From the IMG/VR virus record IMGVR_UViG_643692022_000009: 17,418 nucleotides of DNA; one strand, 5' to 3'. The notes under the pieces were generated by a model, which did no database searches, was not told the DNA's origin, and was given only the letters and a program-made list of their open reading frames with translations. Origin of the DNA: a virus. Its lineage: Duplodnaviria > Heunggongvirae > Uroviricota > Caudoviricetes. Position numbers and translations under genes: made by a program. Positions 1-14,563 of this stretch are shown here, piece by piece (the first letter of the stretch is position 1; each line of letters opens with the position of its first letter).

Positions 1-792
1 ATGCCAATAAATGGAGTCAGTGCTGCGATGCGCGAACGGGTATCGCAGCAATTAAAAGAAATAGAACGTCGCTATGGCGTGAAAGTGCTGTACGCCTGCG
101 AATCGGGGAGTCGCGGTTGGGGATTTGCCTCTCCCGACAGCGACTACGATGTACGATTTTTGTATGTTCACCCGCTGGAATGGTATCTGCGGGTGGAGGC
201 GCCGCGCGATGTTATTGAGTTGCCTATTGACGACGAGTTAGATGTTTCAGGCTGGGAGTGGCGCAAGGCGCTGGGATTACTGAAAGGAGCGAATCCGACG
301 CTGATAGAATGGCTGGATTCTCCGGTGGTCTATCAACAAGATGAAGAAACGATAACGCCGCTTAAGGCAATGGTGCCGAAGTGGTTTTCTCCGCTGCGTG
401 CGCGTTGGCATTATTATTCGATGGCGCGGAAAAACTTTCGCGGTTATTTGCAGGGCGACGTAGTTCGGCTGAAAAAATACTTTTACGTGCTGCGACCACT
501 ACTGGCTGTGCGTTGGGTTGAAGCGGGAAAAGGCGTACCGCCAATGCGCTTTGCCGAGTTACTGGCGGGAAGCGAGCTTGATGCACCGTTACGTGCAGAA
601 ATAGACGAACTGCTGGAACGTAAACAGCGCGCGGGAGAAGCGGAATATGGTCCGCGCCGTCCTTTGTTACATGCGTTTATTCGTGTGGAACTGGCGCGTG
701 GGGAAATTCCACCAGTGTTACCGGACAGCAGGGACGGAGATGCCAGGGAACTGGATGGGTTGTTGTATCAAACAGTGATACGCCGGGCGTGA
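1..792 (+). CDS. Pol-beta superfamily nucleotidyltransferase (263 aa); N-terminal NTase fold plus C-terminal helical domain. The ORF begins exactly at the window edge, so the true start may lie upstream.
   Basis: Translation contains the hG[GS]-x(9-13)-Dh[DE]h signature of Pol-beta-type nucleotidyltransferases: 'LYACESGSRGWGFASPDSDYDVRF'. Uninterrupted 263-codon ORF with typical enterobacterial GC content. Confidence 0.6.
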   Translation: MPINGVSAAMRERVSQQLKEIERRYGVKVLYACESGSRGWGFASPDSDYDVRFLYVHPLEWYLRVEAPRDVIELPIDDELDVSGWEWRKALGLLKGANPTLIEWLDSPVVYQQDEETITPLKAMVPKWFSPLRARWHYYSMARKNFRGYLQGDVVRLKKYFYVLRPLLAVRWVEAGKGVPPMRFAELLAGSELDAPLRAEIDELLERKQRAGEAEYGPRRPLLHAFIRVELARGEIPPVLPDSRDGDARELDGLLYQTVIRRA

Positions 793-821: not shown

Positions 822-1550
822 TTACCGAAGAGAATATTTGAGCTGTTTAAATTTGCTGCAGAGTGTGTTTTTTATGCTGAAACCTGGAACCCAGTGGAGA
901 GCTGTGTTCCAGGGACGAGGTGAACCGTGAAAACATACAATTTTTGCATCCGATGGCAATTCTCCGTTTGCTTTACCATCGTGTAAGTCAGGATTAAAGC
1001 CTATCATTTTAGGCGTCGCTATATTCGCTTTGTAACTGATAATTTGTCCTGGAAAAATATCCTGCCATCTTTCAGCGTCATGACATACTCTGCCGATAAA
1101 TCCCTGATCCCCATGATATGGCGGCTTTCTGGTTGAATTTATTTCAGTTTCAGGCGATCTCATAAACTCTTCCCAGACAAGTTTTTTGGCGTCCGCAGGA
1201 ATGAACATTATTCCAGTCGCAGGAGCAGCATTGGAACCATGCTGCGAGAAGTCGTTCAGTAATGTTACTTTTTTCATTTTAGTAAACTGTGTAATATCAC
1301 CGACGATTACAGTATCAATATCAATATAAAGTATATCTTCATTCCCGATAACAGGATGTTCGGGATTAAATAGCTCTAATTTTGCCCACCATCCTGGCCA
1401 ATTATACAGTAATGGAGTGGTTTGAACCCCTTTGATTTCTGAAGCATCCGTCATGCAAATGGAATTATACCCATCCAGCTGCTGGTGAAGCCATTGTGCA
1501 TGTTTAATAGTGAAATCCTTACTTTGTCTGAGAACTGAGACAATAAACAT
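822..1550 (-). CDS. GT8-family-like (GT-A fold) glycosyltransferase, 242 aa, encoded in an AT-rich block
   Basis: Translation has a DxD motif in GT8-like context ('ILYIDIDTVIVGDI') and a C-terminal 'CFHGSPRPW' resembling the H-x-x-G-x-x-KPW motif of GT8 enzymes (LgtC, WaaJ, glycogenin type). GC content is clearly lower than in the neighbouring tail genes. The ATG is preceded by AGGGA on the minus strand. Confidence 0.5.
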   Translation of the reverse strand: MFIVSVLRQSKDFTIKHAQWLHQQLDGYNSICMTDASEIKGVQTTPLLYNWPGWWAKLELFNPEHPVIGNEDILYIDIDTVIVGDITQFTKMKKVTLLNDFSQHGSNAAPATGIMFIPADAKKLVWEEFMRSPETEINSTRKPPYHGDQGFIGRVCHDAERWQDIFPGQIISYKANIATPKMIGFNPDLHDGKANGELPSDAKIVCFHGSPRPWNTALHWVPGFSIKNTLCSKFKQLKYSLR

Positions 1551-1763: not shown

Positions 1764-2219
1764 TTATGGTTGATATTGCCAACTGTTAACTAAAGCGTAC
1801 AAGTGGTTTGGGGAATAGCGCCAACTTTCTTTTAATTGCAGAAATTCGGCACAAAATTCGCTACAAAACAGGCGATCGCGCTGTTCTTTATTGCCGGTGA
1901 TAATTCCTAAGGCTCCACGCCAGTCGTATTTTTTGCCATCATGTTTACGGAAAAAAGCTTCTACATCCTGAAGGCTGACCTGGAGCGGCAGCATATCCCA
2001 CTTGTCTGGCGGTAAAGGCATTATCTTTCCACGAACGCCGCGATCGCGCAGAGAGGCGGAGTAACAAAGGTAACTCTTTTCTCCATGTGCTACGGCTAAT
2101 TCACAGTGGGAATAACTGCCGCGAGTGATTTTGCGTGTAAGCCAGTCAGCCAGTCTCGCAATAACCCGGTGCTCTGTTCGCCCTTTATAGCAAGCGAGCC
2201 AGACTGTAGTTTTACTCAT
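1764..2219 (-). CDS. Hypothetical 151-aa protein, translationally coupled to the tail-fibre assembly gene; possible permuted papain-like (LRAT / NlpC-P60-type) fold
   Basis: Its ATG overlaps the TGA of the upstream Tfa gene (ATGA, 2216-2219). Normal GC content. Contains 'YSHCELAVAHG' and a C-terminal 'FCSEFCAEF', reminiscent of the His...NCEHF arrangement of permuted NlpC/P60 enzymes. The fold assignment is from motif recall only. Confidence 0.6.
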   Translation of the reverse strand: MSKTTVWLACYKGRTEHRVIARLADWLTRKITRGSYSHCELAVAHGEKSYLCYSASLRDRGVRGKIMPLPPDKWDMLPLQVSLQDVEAFFRKHDGKKYDWRGALGIITGNKEQRDRLFCSEFCAEFLQLKESWRYSPNHLYALVNSWQYQP

Positions 2220-8727: not shown

Positions 8728-9677
8728 CAGCTCCTCGTAATGGTTGCGGCAGCAAACTGACTCACTGCTGGAGTGGTTCGTTGTACCGTTGTTCGTGCCT
8801 GATCAACCAACGTTGCTGCTTTATCAAACGTCGTTTCGGCGATGTCGCTGGTAATGTCATCGAAAAGCGCCTGAGCATGGTCAACCAGCGTACTGGCGTC
8901 ATTGGCGCAGTCCCGGATACCTGGCATGTTACCCAGTAAAGCTTTAATCTGCGCCGACAACGCTTTTGGGAGTCCTGCCAGCGTTTGCAGATCCATCGGC
9001 TGTATAAACAGGGTTTCGATGGCGTCGATTGTCTTTTTCAACGACGTAATTATCTTTTCACACTTTTCTTTTAACGCTTTGGCCTCTTTAATCAGTGCTT
9101 TCACTTTTGCCACTGTTTTTTTAATATCTTCAATGGATTGCGCCAGTTCATCGAGCATCTCTTTGGCTTTGCGCATACCTTCTTCAATGGCGTTCAATAT
9201 CTGATCTAACCAGGACTCCTCCTTATTCGGAAAATCGCTCGCCTTTTCCTCGATATTAGGCTCCTGGGTGGTAATTGCCGGGGGCAGCAGTGGGTTTTTC
9301 GGATCGCCGGTATACTCCTGGAGCGACATTGTTCCACTTTGGGCAATCACATTGCCCCAGGGATCGGTGTGCTGGTGAGTGGCGGTTAACTCTGTAATTA
9401 CAAACCAGCCGCGATAATCTCCGTTGCCAAACACCAGCGCCATTGCTTTGTGGGCGAGCATGGCTTCACGCAGTCGATTCAGCTCTGTTGTGGGTTGGCA
9501 AAACTGGCTGTGCAGGGAAAATTCCAGCGCCAGCATATCCAGCTTATCGCCAATAAACTGTACGCCAGGTTTGCCTTCAATACGGGCATGTGTGGCGTAA
9601 TCCACGCCCATTGTGCTCTTAAAGCCATCCCAGAACGTGACAACTTTAAATTCAATCTCTCCTAAAACGGCATACAT
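8724..9677 (-). CDS. gpU-like tail terminator domain fused to a roughly 190-aa C-terminal coiled-coil-rich extension (317 aa total)
   Basis: N-terminal 'MYAVLGEIEF...RIEGKPGVQFIGDKLDMLALEFSL' parallels P2 gpU ('MMLALG...F...RIGKRDAFQFLGVGEENITLAGVL'). The C-terminal half is K/E/A-rich with heptad-like periodicity. Start overlaps the tape-measure stop. Confidence 0.7.
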   Translation of the reverse strand: MYAVLGEIEFKVVTFWDGFKSTMGVDYATHARIEGKPGVQFIGDKLDMLALEFSLHSQFCQPTTELNRLREAMLAHKAMALVFGNGDYRGWFVITELTATHQHTDPWGNVIAQSGTMSLQEYTGDPKNPLLPPAITTQEPNIEEKASDFPNKEESWLDQILNAIEEGMRKAKEMLDELAQSIEDIKKTVAKVKALIKEAKALKEKCEKIITSLKKTIDAIETLFIQPMDLQTLAGLPKALSAQIKALLGNMPGIRDCANDASTLVDHAQALFDDITSDIAETTFDKAATLVDQARTTVQRTTPAVSQFAAATITRSW

Positions 9678-12052
9678 CAGGCATACCCCCGGCGCTGCTG
9701 CTGCGCCATTACATCGTTAATCATTCTTTCCAGTTCGCGTTTACTCATCGTCAACACGTTCTGAATCTCTTTAGTGGTGTTTTGTCCGTTACCCTGCACG
9801 GTAATTTGTGGCGAAAAATTCACCTGAACTTTTCCTGAGGAACGGGAAGGTAGCGTCGCCGCTTTGGTTACGGATTTACCAGGTAAAGAGGCCGATGCTT
9901 GTTTGGCGGCTGTATTTTTTGCCGCTGATGCCGATGGTAGCGTTGTCGTTTTACTGGATGGCGCGAGTTGTTTCCCCACTGGAGGCGTTAAAATCGCACC
10001 GGCAACGCCTGGAACAACGGTCGTGGAGGAGACGGATGCGGTATTACTCGTGCTTGTAACAGCCGTAGCCGATCCTTCTGTACTAATACCCATCGTGGTT
10101 TTTAGCCAGTCCGGTAAGGCGTTTTTGATCTGGTCAATAATGCCTTTCAGAGCGGGGAAGGCATTTATTATGCCGTCAACCAGACTGCCCAGAAGATTGC
10201 TGCCGAACTCGCTAAAACTTGCAGGCATCTCGACACCAAACCAATTCATCACACTGGAAAAGGCGCTATAGAACAAAGCCAGCGGCGACCAGTCGAGAAT
10301 CAACCGGCAAATCCCTGCAATACCGCCGTCAAAGGCCGTGGTGATACGTTGCCAGATGGTCGAAAAGAACCTGGAGATAGGCTCCCAGTTGCGATAAATC
10401 AGATAAGCAGCACCCGCAATTGCGGTGATGACCAGGCCAATGGGATTCATCAATAAAACCCTACCCAACCAGAAGACGGTCTGACCTACCTGTTTCAGTG
10501 CGCCAATCAGGCCACGACCAAGCAGTTGCATTAGCCATTTTGCGCCGCCACCCAATGACTTAACCGCTGATAGCATCTTACTTGCCCCGCCTGTGAGCGC
10601 CAGACTTGCCTTGACTTTCAGGAAGATATCGACCAGACGAATAAACGGCGAGGTGATGAGGTTCGCGCCCAGCTTTAAAACATTCAGCGCACCGTTAAAC
10701 AGCCAAATCGCCCCGACGATTTTCGCGATGTTTTGCACCAGTGTCGGGTGCTCACGTAGCCAGGTGCTGAACTGACGAATAACCGGCGTAAGGCTTTGTG
10801 CCAGCTCGCCAATCAGCGGCATTAATTGCAAGCCAATGCTGAGCCATAAATCATTTAACGCCAGCTGTAACGCTTTAGTCTGTTCAATGGGCGAGGCCAT
10901 TTGCGCAGAAAAGTCGGCATCAATCAGATTCTTGCTGGTGGCTTGCATGGCAGAGGTTTTTAACTGGCGATATTCCTCCATATTCGCCAGCATAGGTGCC
11001 AGGAATTCCACCGTTTGCGCATCGCCGAACATTTCGCCCAGATTAAATTGCGTCACCATCGATTGCAGCGCATTGCTGCGAGCAGATAAATCTTCAATCT
11101 GCATAGTTCGTTTGAAGGTGTCGAGGATCGCCGGATTCATCTTCTCAAGCTGCATTTGTACGATATGAGTCATGGCTTCGCTAACACCCATACCGTTTTG
11201 CTGATGTTCAAGCAGAGAGCCTTGCAGATCGACGCCCTGGCTGGCGAACCAGTTATCGGTCTTTTTCGAAAAGGTGGTTTGCAGAAAGTGGTCGAAATTC
11301 TCCGCCGCCGCACTGGCGCTGGCTCCGTTTTTCATGGCGATCTGCATGGCGGCAGTCAGTTCAGCCATACCTTCCAGACCCTGAGCGCCGGTTTTACCTG
11401 CAAATTTGTCTATCCACAGCGTTTGCTCGGCAACGGCAGGCCCACCGCTTTTGCTAATGCCGTACATCATGTTTTGCGCGACGTGGAAATTTTCTGGCGC
11501 AATATTCAGTCGATCATGGGTTGCGAGCGCGGCATTCGCCCATGTTTCAGCACTTTCGCGCGTGGCGGTGGCAGCTTTGGCGATCTCCGGCATATAACGG
11601 TTGAGATCCTGTATCGACGACAAATTGCCTTCGATCAGCGTTTGGGCTGCGTTCTGTAAGGTGGTCTGATGCTGGTTAAAATCCATGCTCCAGTCGCGCA
11701 GATTAAGGCTGAGCGTCTCGCGAGTTGTATCATTCATCCCACCTTTGGTCGCCATATTGACCATGTTGTCCTGGAACTCATACGGCAACTTCCAGTCGGG
11801 GGCTTCAACATTGAATACTTTGCTAAATTGCCCGGCAAATGTGTGGGTTTTCTCCATCAGATTAGCGCGGCTGCGGCTATTTTCCTCCAGGCGGAGAGCG
11901 GAATCGGCAAGCCGCTGCGTTAGTTTGATAACTGTCGCTTGCTGAGTAGAGAGAGCTAACAATGTTCTGGCGTTGAGTGAGCCGTAACGGGCTATTGCCT
12001 GCGTCAACGTCTCATTACGCGCCTGAAGCTGGGTAATAATATCGTTGGCCAA
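9677..12052 (-). CDS. Tail tape measure protein, 791 aa
   Basis: Long alpha-helical protein with central hydrophobic segments and an S/T/A-rich low-complexity C-terminal region, located between the chaperone gene and gpU as in all P2/Mu-type tails. Confidence 0.85.
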   Translation of the reverse strand: MANDIITQLQARNETLTQAIARYGSLNARTLLALSTQQATVIKLTQRLADSALRLEENSRSRANLMEKTHTFAGQFSKVFNVEAPDWKLPYEFQDNMVNMATKGGMNDTTRETLSLNLRDWSMDFNQHQTTLQNAAQTLIEGNLSSIQDLNRYMPEIAKAATATRESAETWANAALATHDRLNIAPENFHVAQNMMYGISKSGGPAVAEQTLWIDKFAGKTGAQGLEGMAELTAAMQIAMKNGASASAAAENFDHFLQTTFSKKTDNWFASQGVDLQGSLLEHQQNGMGVSEAMTHIVQMQLEKMNPAILDTFKRTMQIEDLSARSNALQSMVTQFNLGEMFGDAQTVEFLAPMLANMEEYRQLKTSAMQATSKNLIDADFSAQMASPIEQTKALQLALNDLWLSIGLQLMPLIGELAQSLTPVIRQFSTWLREHPTLVQNIAKIVGAIWLFNGALNVLKLGANLITSPFIRLVDIFLKVKASLALTGGASKMLSAVKSLGGGAKWLMQLLGRGLIGALKQVGQTVFWLGRVLLMNPIGLVITAIAGAAYLIYRNWEPISRFFSTIWQRITTAFDGGIAGICRLILDWSPLALFYSAFSSVMNWFGVEMPASFSEFGSNLLGSLVDGIINAFPALKGIIDQIKNALPDWLKTTMGISTEGSATAVTSTSNTASVSSTTVVPGVAGAILTPPVGKQLAPSSKTTTLPSASAAKNTAAKQASASLPGKSVTKAATLPSRSSGKVQVNFSPQITVQGNGQNTTKEIQNVLTMSKRELERMINDVMAQQQRRGYA

Positions 12053-12141
12053 AATTGTTTCTCTTATAGATTGGTGATGGCCCGCTGGTTAGTTTTCTGA
12101 AAAATGGGCTGGGAAGAAATAAACCTGGCGGGCTTTGAAGA

Positions 12142-12166
12142 ACTCGCAGACATCAGGTCTGCGAGT
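12142..12166. other. Perfect 10-bp inverted repeat (ACTCGCAGAC / GTCTGCGAGT, 5-nt loop) in the chaperone to tape-measure gap
   Basis: Read directly from sequence. On the minus strand the hairpin spans the stop codon of an open +1-frame extension of the chaperone gene and is followed by UUCUUCAAAG (a poor U-tract). Possible attenuator or frameshift-associated structure. Confidence 0.4.
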
Positions 12167-12240
12167 CATATTCGATCTTTATTTGAGCGCTGGCTTCATC
12201 CAGCCAGTTGCTAAAGTCATCTATGGTGAGCGCGTCTATC

Positions 12241-12558
12241 TCACTGGGCGGAAAGCGAAACCATCTCGCCAGTAACGCCATCGCTTGCCATAACAGTGGC
12301 GGATTCTGTAGCCACGCTAAGCATGGATTGAAATCGTTTCTGCAATGCCTGGTAATCCAGCAAATCCATTTCAGCTAAATCTTCTGGCACCAGTCCGGTC
12401 ATTGCCGCCATTAGCGGTTCATCCCATTCTTCTGGTTTTTCGCTGATCCGGCGCGCGTTGCGCATATCTTTTACTTTCAGGCGACGTAATTGCAGCGTGT
12501 CGATATTATTTCCTGCTGCCGACGTAAATGGAAACTGCAAGATATAATGTTCTTTCAT
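12241..12558 (-). CDS. Tail assembly chaperone (P2 gpE-like), 105 aa
   Basis: Small acidic protein in the conserved slot between the tube and tape-measure genes; sequence pattern parallels gpE. A 189-nt gap follows before the tape-measure ATG, where an E-prime-type extension would be expected. Confidence 0.65.
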   Translation of the reverse strand: MKEHYILQFPFTSAAGNNIDTLQLRRLKVKDMRNARRISEKPEEWDEPLMAAMTGLVPEDLAEMDLLDYQALQKRFQSMLSVATESATVMASDGVTGEMVSLSAQ

Positions 12559-12608
12559 TTTGTGTCCTTATTTATTTTGCAAAGTTCGGGGCCGTAGCCC
12601 CGAATAAC

Positions 12609-13133
12609 TTAGCCACCGATGTTATTGCGATAGGTACTTAATTGATCCACACCATTAACCCGGAAAATATTGGCCATATAATCAAGTTCAAGCAGCGTTT
12701 CACCATCAACTACTTGTTTAATATAAGTGCAACCAAAGGCGCTGCTGAATTCCGGGTTTTCATTCTGTTTAAATGTGCCCAGTGGATTCTTTTTAAACAT
12801 CACGGTTAAATGTGTCACTAACGCTAATTGATTCGCTTTCCCCTGGGAGTTATAGCAATCAATACTGGAGCGGCACTGTAATGCCACCGCCTGCCACGGG
12901 TTTGCCGTTTTACGCATGACGTCCTGATAAAAGGAGTTCCATTTAATTTCGCCCTCCAGTTTATCGAAACCTGCCGGGAGTTCGATTTTGCCGACCATAC
13001 CCAGTGCCTTATGCTCTTGCATAATTAAACTGACATCCGGCAATTTAATTTCGGTTGCACGACCTAAAAGGTTATTACCATCGAGATAAATATTGGCGTT
13101 GGTAATACGGTTAATTTGAATTTTTCCAGCCAT
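12609..13133 (-). CDS. Major tail tube protein (P2 gpFII family), 174 aa
   Basis: Size and position immediately downstream of the sheath gene (start overlaps the sheath stop by 1 nt); tube-family sequence character. Confidence 0.85.
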   Translation of the reverse strand: MAGKIQINRITNANIYLDGNNLLGRATEIKLPDVSLIMQEHKALGMVGKIELPAGFDKLEGEIKWNSFYQDVMRKTANPWQAVALQCRSSIDCYNSQGKANQLALVTHLTVMFKKNPLGTFKQNENPEFSSAFGCTYIKQVVDGETLLELDYMANIFRVNGVDQLSTYRNNIGG

Positions 13134-14563
13134 TAGCTATTGCTCTCCAGAGAGACTAAATATTCAGAAGTAATTTCAGTTTCAAACGTCAGACGTTCCA
13201 GCGGCGGTGGCGGGGTGAATTTATAGCTCAGCAATAAATGCCCGGCGCTGAGTTCGGTCGGTGAATTTCGCGCCGGATCGTACCAGCACTCAAAGCCAAG
13301 CAGTGCGCCGTCGGCAATCAGCTTACGGCCCCAGGTATTTACCGATTCGGTCAGGGCATCAATCAGCGCCTGATTAATCGGCATATCAATATACTGCTGA
13401 CTGAAATAACGGATTGACTCATTAATTACATCGCCTGTCCGGCGGGCGTTTTCAAAGTTACGCATATGGGTCACGGTAGGCCATGCCGCTGTGCGGTTGC
13501 CCCACAAGCGCAGACCAGAGCCGTAACTATTGAAAATAGTGGTAATGCCGTTTTCGTTGAGCTGATTCACTTCGCTTTGAGGATCATCAATCATTGCGGA
13601 AAGCGAACGTTCAATACCGGTAATACCCTGAATTTCCTGGTTTGAGTTGCTCCACCAGAAACCTTTTTCGAGGTCTACTTTGGCACGTAGCCCGGCAGCG
13701 CGCGAAGAGAGCGGTTCGAGAACTTCCTGGTTAGTGATGCCATCGTAAACTTTGACGTGTGGGTAACATAAACGCGCACGATCAGAGCTGGTGTTGAAGT
13801 TGATAGCCCCTTGCGAACCGCGTCCTGCCAATACCTGCTGGAATGTCGTCCCAATCGGGGCATCAATGTAGGTAATCGCACCAAGTTTTTCCGCTTGTGC
13901 AATCAGCTCGGTAGTTACTGATTTTTGCGTACAGAACACGGGAGCAAGCAGGATTTTGGCGTAGAAACCATACAGGTTATAGGTGTCCTGTAGCAGTTTC
14001 ATCCCCGTGCGATCGCCTGCGGTATTAACGGCACCGATAATATCGGCTGCGGTGACCTTTGTAGGGTCGCACCAGGAATAATAGGCGCAAACTTTCGCAC
14101 CAGGAGGAATGTCGGCTCCTGTACGGGTAATTATGCCTGTTTGTTCATCTACGCTAAATGCTGCGGTGTTATAGGTTGATGAATTTGATGAAGAGGGCTT
14201 TAGAACCACGTTACGCACATTGCGGTGAGCGAGTTTCGCCTGGTTGTTAGCGTCAAAAGTGATACTCTCATTGCTGATGTTGGAGCCATGTTTTGCCGGA
14301 TCCAGCACGTTAATCACCACCACCGTACCGGCACCGTGGTCATAAATCGCCTTCAGTGCCTGCGGGATCGTAAAGTTAGCCTGAGTCGAACCAAACTGCG
14401 CAGCATCGCTTTCAGAAAGGCATAATGTTGGTTTATTTACCGGACCACAGGGGGCCGTACCGATTAAAGCGATGACGGCGGATTTTACCGCTTTAACCGG
14501 ACGCGGGCCGGTTTCAATTTCAATGGTTTCTACACCGTGCAGATAATTAGCTGCCATGTACAA
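13133..14563 (-). CDS. Contractile tail sheath protein (P2 gpFI / Mu L family), 476 aa
   Basis: N-terminus 'YLHGVETIEIETGPRPVKAVKSAVIALIGTAP' is the conserved sheath start (compare P2 FI 'YHHGVQVLEINEGTR...'). Size is typical of sheath proteins. Confidence 0.9.
   Translation of the reverse strand: MYMAANYLHGVETIEIETGPRPVKAVKSAVIALIGTAPCGPVNKPTLCLSESDAAQFGSTQANFTIPQALKAIYDHGAGTVVVINVLDPAKHGSNISNESITFDANNQAKLAHRNVRNVVLKPSSSNSSTYNTAAFSVDEQTGIITRTGADIPPGAKVCAYYSWCDPTKVTAADIIGAVNTAGDRTGMKLLQDTYNLYGFYAKILLAPVFCTQKSVTTELIAQAEKLGAITYIDAPIGTTFQQVLAGRGSQGAINFNTSSDRARLCYPHVKVYDGITNQEVLEPLSSRAAGLRAKVDLEKGFWWSNSNQEIQGITGIERSLSAMIDDPQSEVNQLNENGITTIFNSYGSGLRLWGNRTAAWPTVTHMRNFENARRTGDVINESIRYFSQQYIDMPINQALIDALTESVNTWGRKLIADGALLGFECWYDPARNSPTELSAGHLLLSYKFTPPPPLERLTFETEITSEYLVSLESNS

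Follow-up and report, generated by a model that had tools for sequence, protein, structure and literature searches.

The longer of the two tail assembly chaperone products encoded in a 17,418-nt stretch of tailed-phage DNA (IMG/VR record IMGVR_UViG_643692022_000009, Caudoviricetes; the whole stretch is hereafter called the window) is very probably made by a +1 ribosomal frameshift at a conserved UUU_C sequence. The locus belongs to a contractile tail cluster of the P2/BcepMu type, in which it is the tail assembly chaperone pair, and corresponds to E and E+E' of phage P2 and, functionally, to G and GT of phage lambda. Programmed frameshifting in tail chaperone genes is conserved in tailed phages and sets the protein ratio for correct tail length; this conservation was reportedly described by Xu, Hendrix and Duda in 2004. 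The present locus is most likely an unannotated case of this known kind of recoding, and current annotations of the chaperone family most likely miss the +1 shift.

All genes of the region are carried by the minus strand, with the chaperone gene sitting between the tube and tape-measure genes (Table 1). Its short form, read in frame 0, matches PF10109 with an E-value of 1.8e-19 (70 bits, for a cut-off of 25) and falls into PHROG phrog_166, a tail protein. An initial annotation, made from the sequence alone, had noticed an open +1 frame overlapping this gene and had suggested that it could reflect a +1 recoding event or a separate small gene, or that a perfect 10-bp hairpin at its end could simply be an attenuator tuning tape-measure levels. 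The open frame is indeed present: it comprises 73 stop-free codons, overlaps the chaperone gene by 134 nt and ends with ...DDFSNWLDEASAQIKIEYDSQT followed by a TGA. Its length is unremarkable when taken alone, as 6 of the 229 +1-frame runs counted among the genes of the window reach at least 73 codons. We therefore rejected the length of the open reading frame (ORF) as weak evidence, and the significance of the +1 frame comes from homology and from the comparative data.

Homology of the +1 Frame to the P2 E' Extension

Profile comparisons identify the +1 ORF as encoding a homologue of the P2 E' extension. Against PF06528 (Phage_P2_GpE), the family of the E' segment, the window extension itself stays short of the cut-off, with 20.4 bits for a required 23. 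In an alignment of 16 equivalents of the extension from relatives, PF06528 matches eight sequences, the best with an E-value of 4.8e-10. When the profile of the extension family was compared with the E' part of P2 gpE+E' using hhalign, a probability of 94.8% was obtained. BLASTP of the predicted fusion against P2 E+E' aligns residues 93-122 with residues 104-133, and 17 residues separate the proposed shift site from the conserved E' motif, compared with about 18 in P2. A sequence search of the PDB with the fusion protein gave no meaningful match.

Relatives and the Frame of E'

Related loci were collected from one genome per species (22 loci), from IMG/VR (69 loci, with 18 more added later), from annotated phages and from E. 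coli genomes, and a hidden Markov model of the E' segment was used to assign its frame at each locus. Of the first 98 loci, 88 have E' in the +1 frame and nine have it in the -1 frame; the remaining one, Erwinia tracheiphila, has an indel that puts it in frame 0. All of the 18 further IMG/VR loci carry E' in the +1 frame. These +1-type loci span E. coli, Superficieibacter, Dryocola, Phytobacter, Lelliottia, Pectobacterium, the phages PhiKM and KP12, a Ralstonia phage, the Pseudomonas phage Bise, the BcepMu clade and Conchiformibius. In every one of them (106/106, that is 88 + 18), the overlap contains exactly one in-frame TTT_C, located at the phenylalanine homologous to F76; in the window, the sole in-frame TTT_C of the overlap is at 12333..12330. 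The TTT codon is retained even in phages of 61-63% GC, in which TTC predominates. BcepMu has two TTT among 11 Phe codons, and in Bise the single TTT among 13 Phe codons is the one at the shift site.

The nine -1-type relatives are more distant ones: Burkholderiales and Bryobacterales metagenome-assembled genomes, four IMG/VR contigs and a Pasteurella phage (loci L019-L023 and L096-L099). Seven of them have T_TTT_TTG, one has the variant T_TTT_TTA, and the Pasteurella phage has an A-rich stretch. In the six contigs whose chaperone ends in ...GFLS-stop, the heptamer is located three codons downstream of the homologous Phe position. Since the -1 and +1 sites nearly coincide within one protein family, the family appears to have switched between -1 and +1 signals, close homologues using T_TTT_TTG or UUU_C only three codons apart.

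In a few loci, indels have joined the two frames. In Erwinia tracheiphila, the indel near the 0-frame stop places the C-terminal part of E' in the chaperone's own frame, giving a single 130-aa ORF devoid of the LLARWFRF segment. Four E. coli-type assemblies (L101-L104, variants P0010 and P0011) have a single 134-aa ORF created by a 1-nt deletion 15 codons past UUU_C. In three of these four contigs, the tube genes are also split or truncated, which points to decaying clusters or error-prone assemblies. We rejected these assemblies as natural evidence for the junction, because the deletions are located past the site, so that all they demonstrate is that the +1 frame can be read. Finally, the frames are fused by deletions of 25 and 28 nt in the metagenomic variants P0002 and P0017.

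Position of the Frame Switch

A comparison of the constraint on the +1 and gpE frames in homologues, which the initial annotation had put forward as a check, places the change of frame within about 30 nt after the TTT codon. In 62 unique gap-free sequences, variation is concentrated at the third positions of frame 0 up to TTT and is then spread evenly over about 30 nt. Beyond about 15-30 nt, it is concentrated at the third positions of the +1 frame, through and past the 0-frame stop. Third-position variation thus switches to the +1 frame after TTT, and the +1 frame is under purifying selection. Conservation of the 0-frame protein is strong up to R75-F76-Q77 and poor beyond, and an invariant Trp codon of the +1 frame (12314..12312) is found six codons past the shift site. 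On the 5' side, the shift window is limited by a +1-frame stop that the Ralstonia phage has three codons ahead of TTT. No start codon is conserved in the +1 frame among the aligned relatives.

Proposed Mechanism of the +1 Shift

In the mechanism that we propose, most ribosomes would read frame 0 to its TGA and release the short chaperone, and a minority would shift at CGA_UUU_C. There, the P-site tRNA-Phe bound to UUU would re-pair one base forward on UUC, so that reading would resume at AAU (12329..12327), then CCA UGC..., and end at the TGA of the +1 frame. The product would be a 134-aa E+E'-like fusion made of chaperone residues 1-76 and a 58-residue E'-like domain, with the junction ...KRF-NPC... 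and a predicted tryptic junction peptide FNPCLAWLQNPPLLWQAMALLAR. If lambda and P2 are taken as models, the N-terminal part common to both products would be the one that binds the tape measure protein, and tube subunits would be brought in by the extension; the ratio of the short to the long form would be set by the low frequency of the shift.

Several precedents are consistent with this mechanism. UUU_Ynn sequences are especially prone to +1 frameshifting in bacteria, even in the absence of a stop codon, and such a site was proposed for YopN-TyeA (PMC5009743). UCC_UUU_CGU is the proven +1 site of influenza PA-X, and the same study predicted that UUU_C sites with a restricted choice of flanking codons form a class (PMC3498833). 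For tail genes of the present class, shifts by -1, -2, and +1 are all recognized (PMC5009743), and SEA-PHAGES annotations include hundreds of forward-shift cases (PMC10885494). By analogy, the efficiency of the shift should be low; that of the Mu frameshift is quoted as about 2.2% (PMC3498833). A literature search, which did not cover the BcepMu paper itself, found no prior account of +1 shifting in the gpE/BcepMu gp41 family.

A number of points have to be set against a +1 shift at UUU_C. No conserved RNA structure was found downstream of the site: RNAalifold gave -1.3 kcal/mol and no shared helix on 14 diverse sequences, and the z-scores of single-sequence folds in this region are mostly between -0.3 and -1.6. 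No Shine-Dalgarno-like (SD-like) 5' stimulator is visible upstream of the site, and the 0-frame A-site codon that follows UUU is CAA or CAG, which is not rare. With no rare A-site codon, SD-like element or 3' structure, the CGA codon that precedes UUU is the only candidate stimulator, and it is not conserved outside Enterobacterales and Ralstonia. Many of the 106 loci are closely related, the number of independent lineages being nearer ten. The UUU and the following C are also partly fixed by the conserved amino acids Phe and Gln/Arg/Leu, so that some of the conservation of the motif is not independent evidence. Finally, the whole case is built on the comparison of sequences. Apart from these points, Rfam has no family at its gathering score in the window and none at E<=1 within 11950..12450.

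The CGA Codon as a Candidate Stimulator

Of 63 unique enterobacterial sequences, 62 have CGA directly 5' of UUU, as does the Ralstonia phage, whereas a second conserved arginine of the chaperone gene is encoded only by CGC or CGT. In the other clades, the codon before UUU is UCC/GCC/UCU or GCA/GCG/AAA, and the A-site codon is CAR, CUG, or CGY. The conserved rare CGA may stimulate the slip in enterobacteria. CGA is read by tRNA-Arg(ICG) through an inosine-adenosine wobble, and its effect might be exerted through this wobble. With CGA in the P site, a distorted presentation of the A-site codon could lead tRNA-Phe to bind UUC out of frame; with CGA in the E site, early dissociation could favor slippage in the P site. 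CGA-induced frameshifting is known in yeast (PMC6301793). That CGA is a dedicated +1 stimulator in bacteria, and that CGA_UUU_C represents a new, structure-free class of bacterial recoding related to the yeast case, is an idea that we regard as rather doubtful.

Other Ways of Reaching or Translating the +1 Frame

Because frame alone cannot separate a -2 from a +1 shift, the +1 frame could also be reached by slipping two bases back, as in phage Mu, which would add one residue at the junction. The Mu chaperone belongs to the same Pfam family and has, according to its record annotation, a verified -2 shift at CGG_GGG_CGA, so that the rare CGA is present both in the Mu signal and at the present site. 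However, the G-run of Mu (GGG_GG) is not found in the overlap, and re-pairing two bases back is impossible at the nearby codons, where UUU would have to pair at GAU, CGA at AAC, and AAA at AGA. UUU_C, the sole motif conserved in all clades, fits re-pairing in the +1 direction exactly, which makes a -2 shift highly improbable. It is also unlikely, though slightly less so, that the E'-like ORF is a separate small gene expressed without recoding, as the initial annotation had envisaged. Such a gene would start at ATG 12281, the sole ATG available, and encode a 42-aa protein (MALLARWF...). This ATG is kept within the E. coli/Enterobacter-type clade, and the equivalent ORF of BcepMu, gp42, is a stand-alone coding sequence in its GenBank record. 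Yet the Pectobacterium, PhiKM, L063, Ralstonia, and Bise relatives have CAG, ACG, or GGG in place of this ATG, it is not preceded by an SD sequence, and purifying selection in the +1 frame, including that on the invariant Trp, starts upstream of it. In addition, the Prokaryotic Genome Annotation Pipeline (PGAP) calls no gene in the E' region, and the P2 record has E' made only as a fusion.

Other recoding routes were tried and rejected. [quoted passage not shown] This excludes a -1 frameshift. Transcriptional slippage was set aside because the longest homopolymer run, A5, is upstream of the +1-frame stop. A prfB-like shift at CTT_T (12252..12249), close to the 0-frame stop, is not conserved, as the sequence is CTT_C in L008 and GTT_T in PhiKM; it would also leave out the most conserved part of E', which is under +1 selection upstream of CTT_T. 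Nor does UUU_C itself qualify as a prfB-type site, its A-site codon being CAA rather than a stop and no SD-like sequence being present upstream. Finally, slippage of tRNA-Lys on the AAA before CGA, with CGA as a hungry A-site codon in the manner of Mu, is not supported, since the AAA gives way to AAG, GAG, or ACC in part of the relatives and the window sequence allows re-pairing in neither the +1 nor the -2 direction.

The Hairpin at the E' Stop and the Spacer Stem

The perfect 10-bp hairpin reported in the initial annotation is present, with the TGA of the +1 frame in its loop. Its arms are ACTCGCAGAC (12166..12157) and GTCTGCGAGT (12151..12142), its loop is CTGAT (12156..12152), and one further G-U pair can form. 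The fold of the 151-nt region around it has a z-score of -3.3. In 14 sequences of the enteric clade, all 10 pairs are kept, with one compensatory change from A-U to G-C and several one-sided changes that preserve pairing. As the 3' arm is non-coding, this conservation is not merely a by-product of coding. A second, long-range stem follows in the spacer between E' and the tape measure gene, where it closes a pyrimidine-rich loop of about 40 nt. It is found in every enteric relative folded singly (13-14 sequences), mostly as GCCCGG...CCGGGC, and was missed by RNAalifold because the alignment was out of register there.

Could this hairpin be the functional element, either as a frameshift stimulator or as a terminator or attenuator lowering tape-measure expression, with the +1 ORF being incidental? 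The stem is strong, it shows a compensatory change in the enteric clade, and it is followed by a second conserved stem. In the same spacer, Pectobacterium relatives have a different hairpin followed by TTTT, and a partial stop past the abundant tube and chaperone genes would make sense. However, the hairpin lies about 165 nt past the frame switch, a distance too great for it to influence ribosomes at the site of the shift, and it is absent in the Pectobacterium, PhiKM, Ralstonia, BcepMu, and Pseudomonas relatives, which have the +1 ORF and keep UUU_C. It is therefore not the frameshift signal, contrary to the suggestion in the initial annotation, which had not located the shift site, that it might stand in for one. 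As a terminator, it has no U-tract after it, its tail being UUCUUCAAAG, and a terminator scan reports neither of the two stems. Selection on the protein encoded by the +1 ORF is also clear. We hence give very little credence to an incidental +1 ORF; an attenuator role is compatible with a +1 shift at UUU_C and is not a true rival to it. The hairpin is a real but separate element that marks the end of E'. Preceding the low-copy tape measure gene, it might plausibly act in attenuation, in transcript stability, or in the formation of transcript 3' ends.

On the other side of the chaperone pair, a perfect 8-bp GC-rich hairpin with a UACG tetraloop (TTCGGGGC-TACG-GCCCCGAA; 12604..12585, minus strand) is located directly 3' of the tube stop (12611..12609) and is followed by CTTTGCAAAAT. 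The chaperone pair has a stable stem-loop on either side, the other one being the hairpin at the E' stop.

Organization of the Locus

The features of the region are listed in Table 1. The start of the tape measure gene is not the ATG given in the initial annotation; it is a TTG that is kept in relatives and that is also chosen by PGAP, and TTGGCCAACGA at this start is unchanged across relatives. The gap of 189 nt reported between the chaperone and tape-measure genes is close to the spacer of 188 nt that separates the chaperone stop from the TTG, but only 100 nt are non-coding when the +1 ORF is taken into account. A weak GAGAAA SD sequence precedes the TTG (12052..12050), and TTTTGGCCAACGA is invariant throughout the enteric clade. 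The TTG start and its weak SD sequence may keep tape-measure output low.

Table 1. Coordinates of the chaperone locus and of its neighbors in the window (MFE, minimum free energy).
Feature	Position	Strand	Basis and remarks
Sheath gene	14563..13133	minus	
Tail tube gene, P2 FII family	13133..12609	minus	PF04985, E=3.7e-56; directly upstream of the chaperone gene
gpE-like tail assembly chaperone, short form, frame 0	12558..12241	minus	105 aa; PF10109 Phage_TAC_7
Stop-free +1 stretch	12374..12156	minus	73 codons, from translations; overlap with the chaperone gene 12374..12241
Proposed shift site CGA_UUU_C	12336..12330	minus	CGA 12336..12334; UUU 12333..12331 = Phe76; C 12330
E'-like extension after the shift	12329..12153	minus	58 codons, NPCLAW...EYDSQT, and TGA 12155..12153
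0-frame stop TGA of the chaperone	12243..12241	minus	
10-bp hairpin with the E' stop codon in its loop	12166..12142	minus	sequence and MFE fold
Second, long-range stem GCCCGC...GCGGGC	12133..12080	minus	MFE fold; spacer between E' and tape measure
Tape measure gene, TTG start 12052	12052..9677	minus	PF10145; followed by baseplate and fiber genes

Cluster Context and Distribution

The window corresponds to a headless tail cluster of about 16 kb. It encodes a Mor-family activator, a holin, a lytic transglycosylase, and a membrane protein; the tail genes then run from a Gp37-family protein to the fiber assembly protein, and cargo genes are found at the end. No head, integrase, or replication gene is present among the genes of the window. 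Homologous clusters are found in many IMG/VR "viruses" of only 14-17 kb. In E. coli, the cluster is located between lysC and yjbD (L105, strain 142), and headless tail clusters of this lineage, which also includes BcepMu-like phages, are present in 195 of 5,426 complete E. coli genomes and in all 10 of the Pectobacterium species genomes retrieved. Overall, the cluster looks like a tailocin (R-type bacteriocin) rather than a prophage, and presumably resembles carotovoricin.

The cargo-like genes occupy positions 1-2219 of the window and comprise a nucleotidyltransferase gene (1..792, plus strand), a glycosyltransferase-like ORF (1550..822), and a short enoyl-CoA hydratase-like ORF (2219..1764). 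A different cargo set, which encodes a slipin family protein among others, is found in the E. coli strain examined. ISEcp1 interrupts the tape measure gene of strain FDAARGOS_497.

Annotation of the Chaperone Pair in Current Records

The PGAP annotation of the two E. coli genomes inspected has the 105-aa chaperone alone, with no feature over the E' region. In the RefSeq E. coli loci L001 and L105, the PGAP locus tags skip one number precisely at the step from the chaperone to the tape measure gene (RS22435 to RS22445; RS10680 to RS10670), and it looks as if a feature had once been called there and later dropped. The records of phages PhiKM, KP12, and Bise have the short chaperone ORF only. The BcepMu record (AY539836) treats gp42, whose frame is +1 with respect to gp41, as a "lambda G-like" gene of its own and has the slippage between gp42 and gp43. 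Our comparison suggests instead that gp41 and gp42 are joined by a +1 shift at UCC_UUU_CGC. None of the annotated records inspected has the long product as an extension of the chaperone.

The locus would provide a comparatively well-supported bacterial UUU_C +1 site with a candidate flanking stimulator, CGA. Correct annotation matters for tailocin engineering, because both forms of the chaperone must be supplied.

Comparison With Known Frameshift Systems

A close parallel is the gpE/gpE+E' pair of P2. The two loci have the same position, between the tube gene (FII in P2) and the tape-measure gene (T in P2), and the N-terminal parts belong to the same Pfam family; for the extension, the E' family PF06528 matches half of the aligned relatives, with the window copy below the cut-off. 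The position of the proposed shift within the protein is almost that of P2, the sites of the -1 relatives being three codons away, and the distance to the E' motif is similar. A 3' RNA structure is found in neither (for P2, see PMC3091744). On the other hand, P2 shifts by -1 on T_TTT_TTG, whereas the shift proposed here would be +1 on UUU_C preceded by CGA. The 0-frame tail after the site comprises 29 codons here vs. six in P2, and E' overlaps T in P2, whereas a structured spacer of 100 nt precedes the tape measure gene here.

The present chaperone also shares with Mu gp41 the PF10109 family, whose very name cites "E, or 41 or 14", an extension located one base forward and a rare CGA as part of the signal, which is a proposed one here. 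However, the Mu shift goes two bases backward and takes place on a G-run, CGA being the A-site codon, whereas CGA precedes the slippery codon here. With the UUU_Ynn or PA-X-like sites (influenza PA-X, Yersinia YopN-TyeA, and UUU-pyrimidine sites of E. coli), the locus would have in common the re-pairing of the P-site tRNA-Phe from UUU to UUC. In the BcepMu clade, the site is UCC/GCC_UUU_CGC, and UCC_UUU_CGC is almost the PA-X motif UCC_UUU_CGU. The setting is different, since the gene concerned is a phage tail chaperone, and the enterobacterial flanks are CGA on the 5' side and CAA/CAG on the 3' side instead of UCC and CGU. Finally, as for gpG and gpGT of lambda, two products with a common N-terminus would be made from a single chaperone gene, but the tail is contractile here and the shift would occur in the +1 direction.

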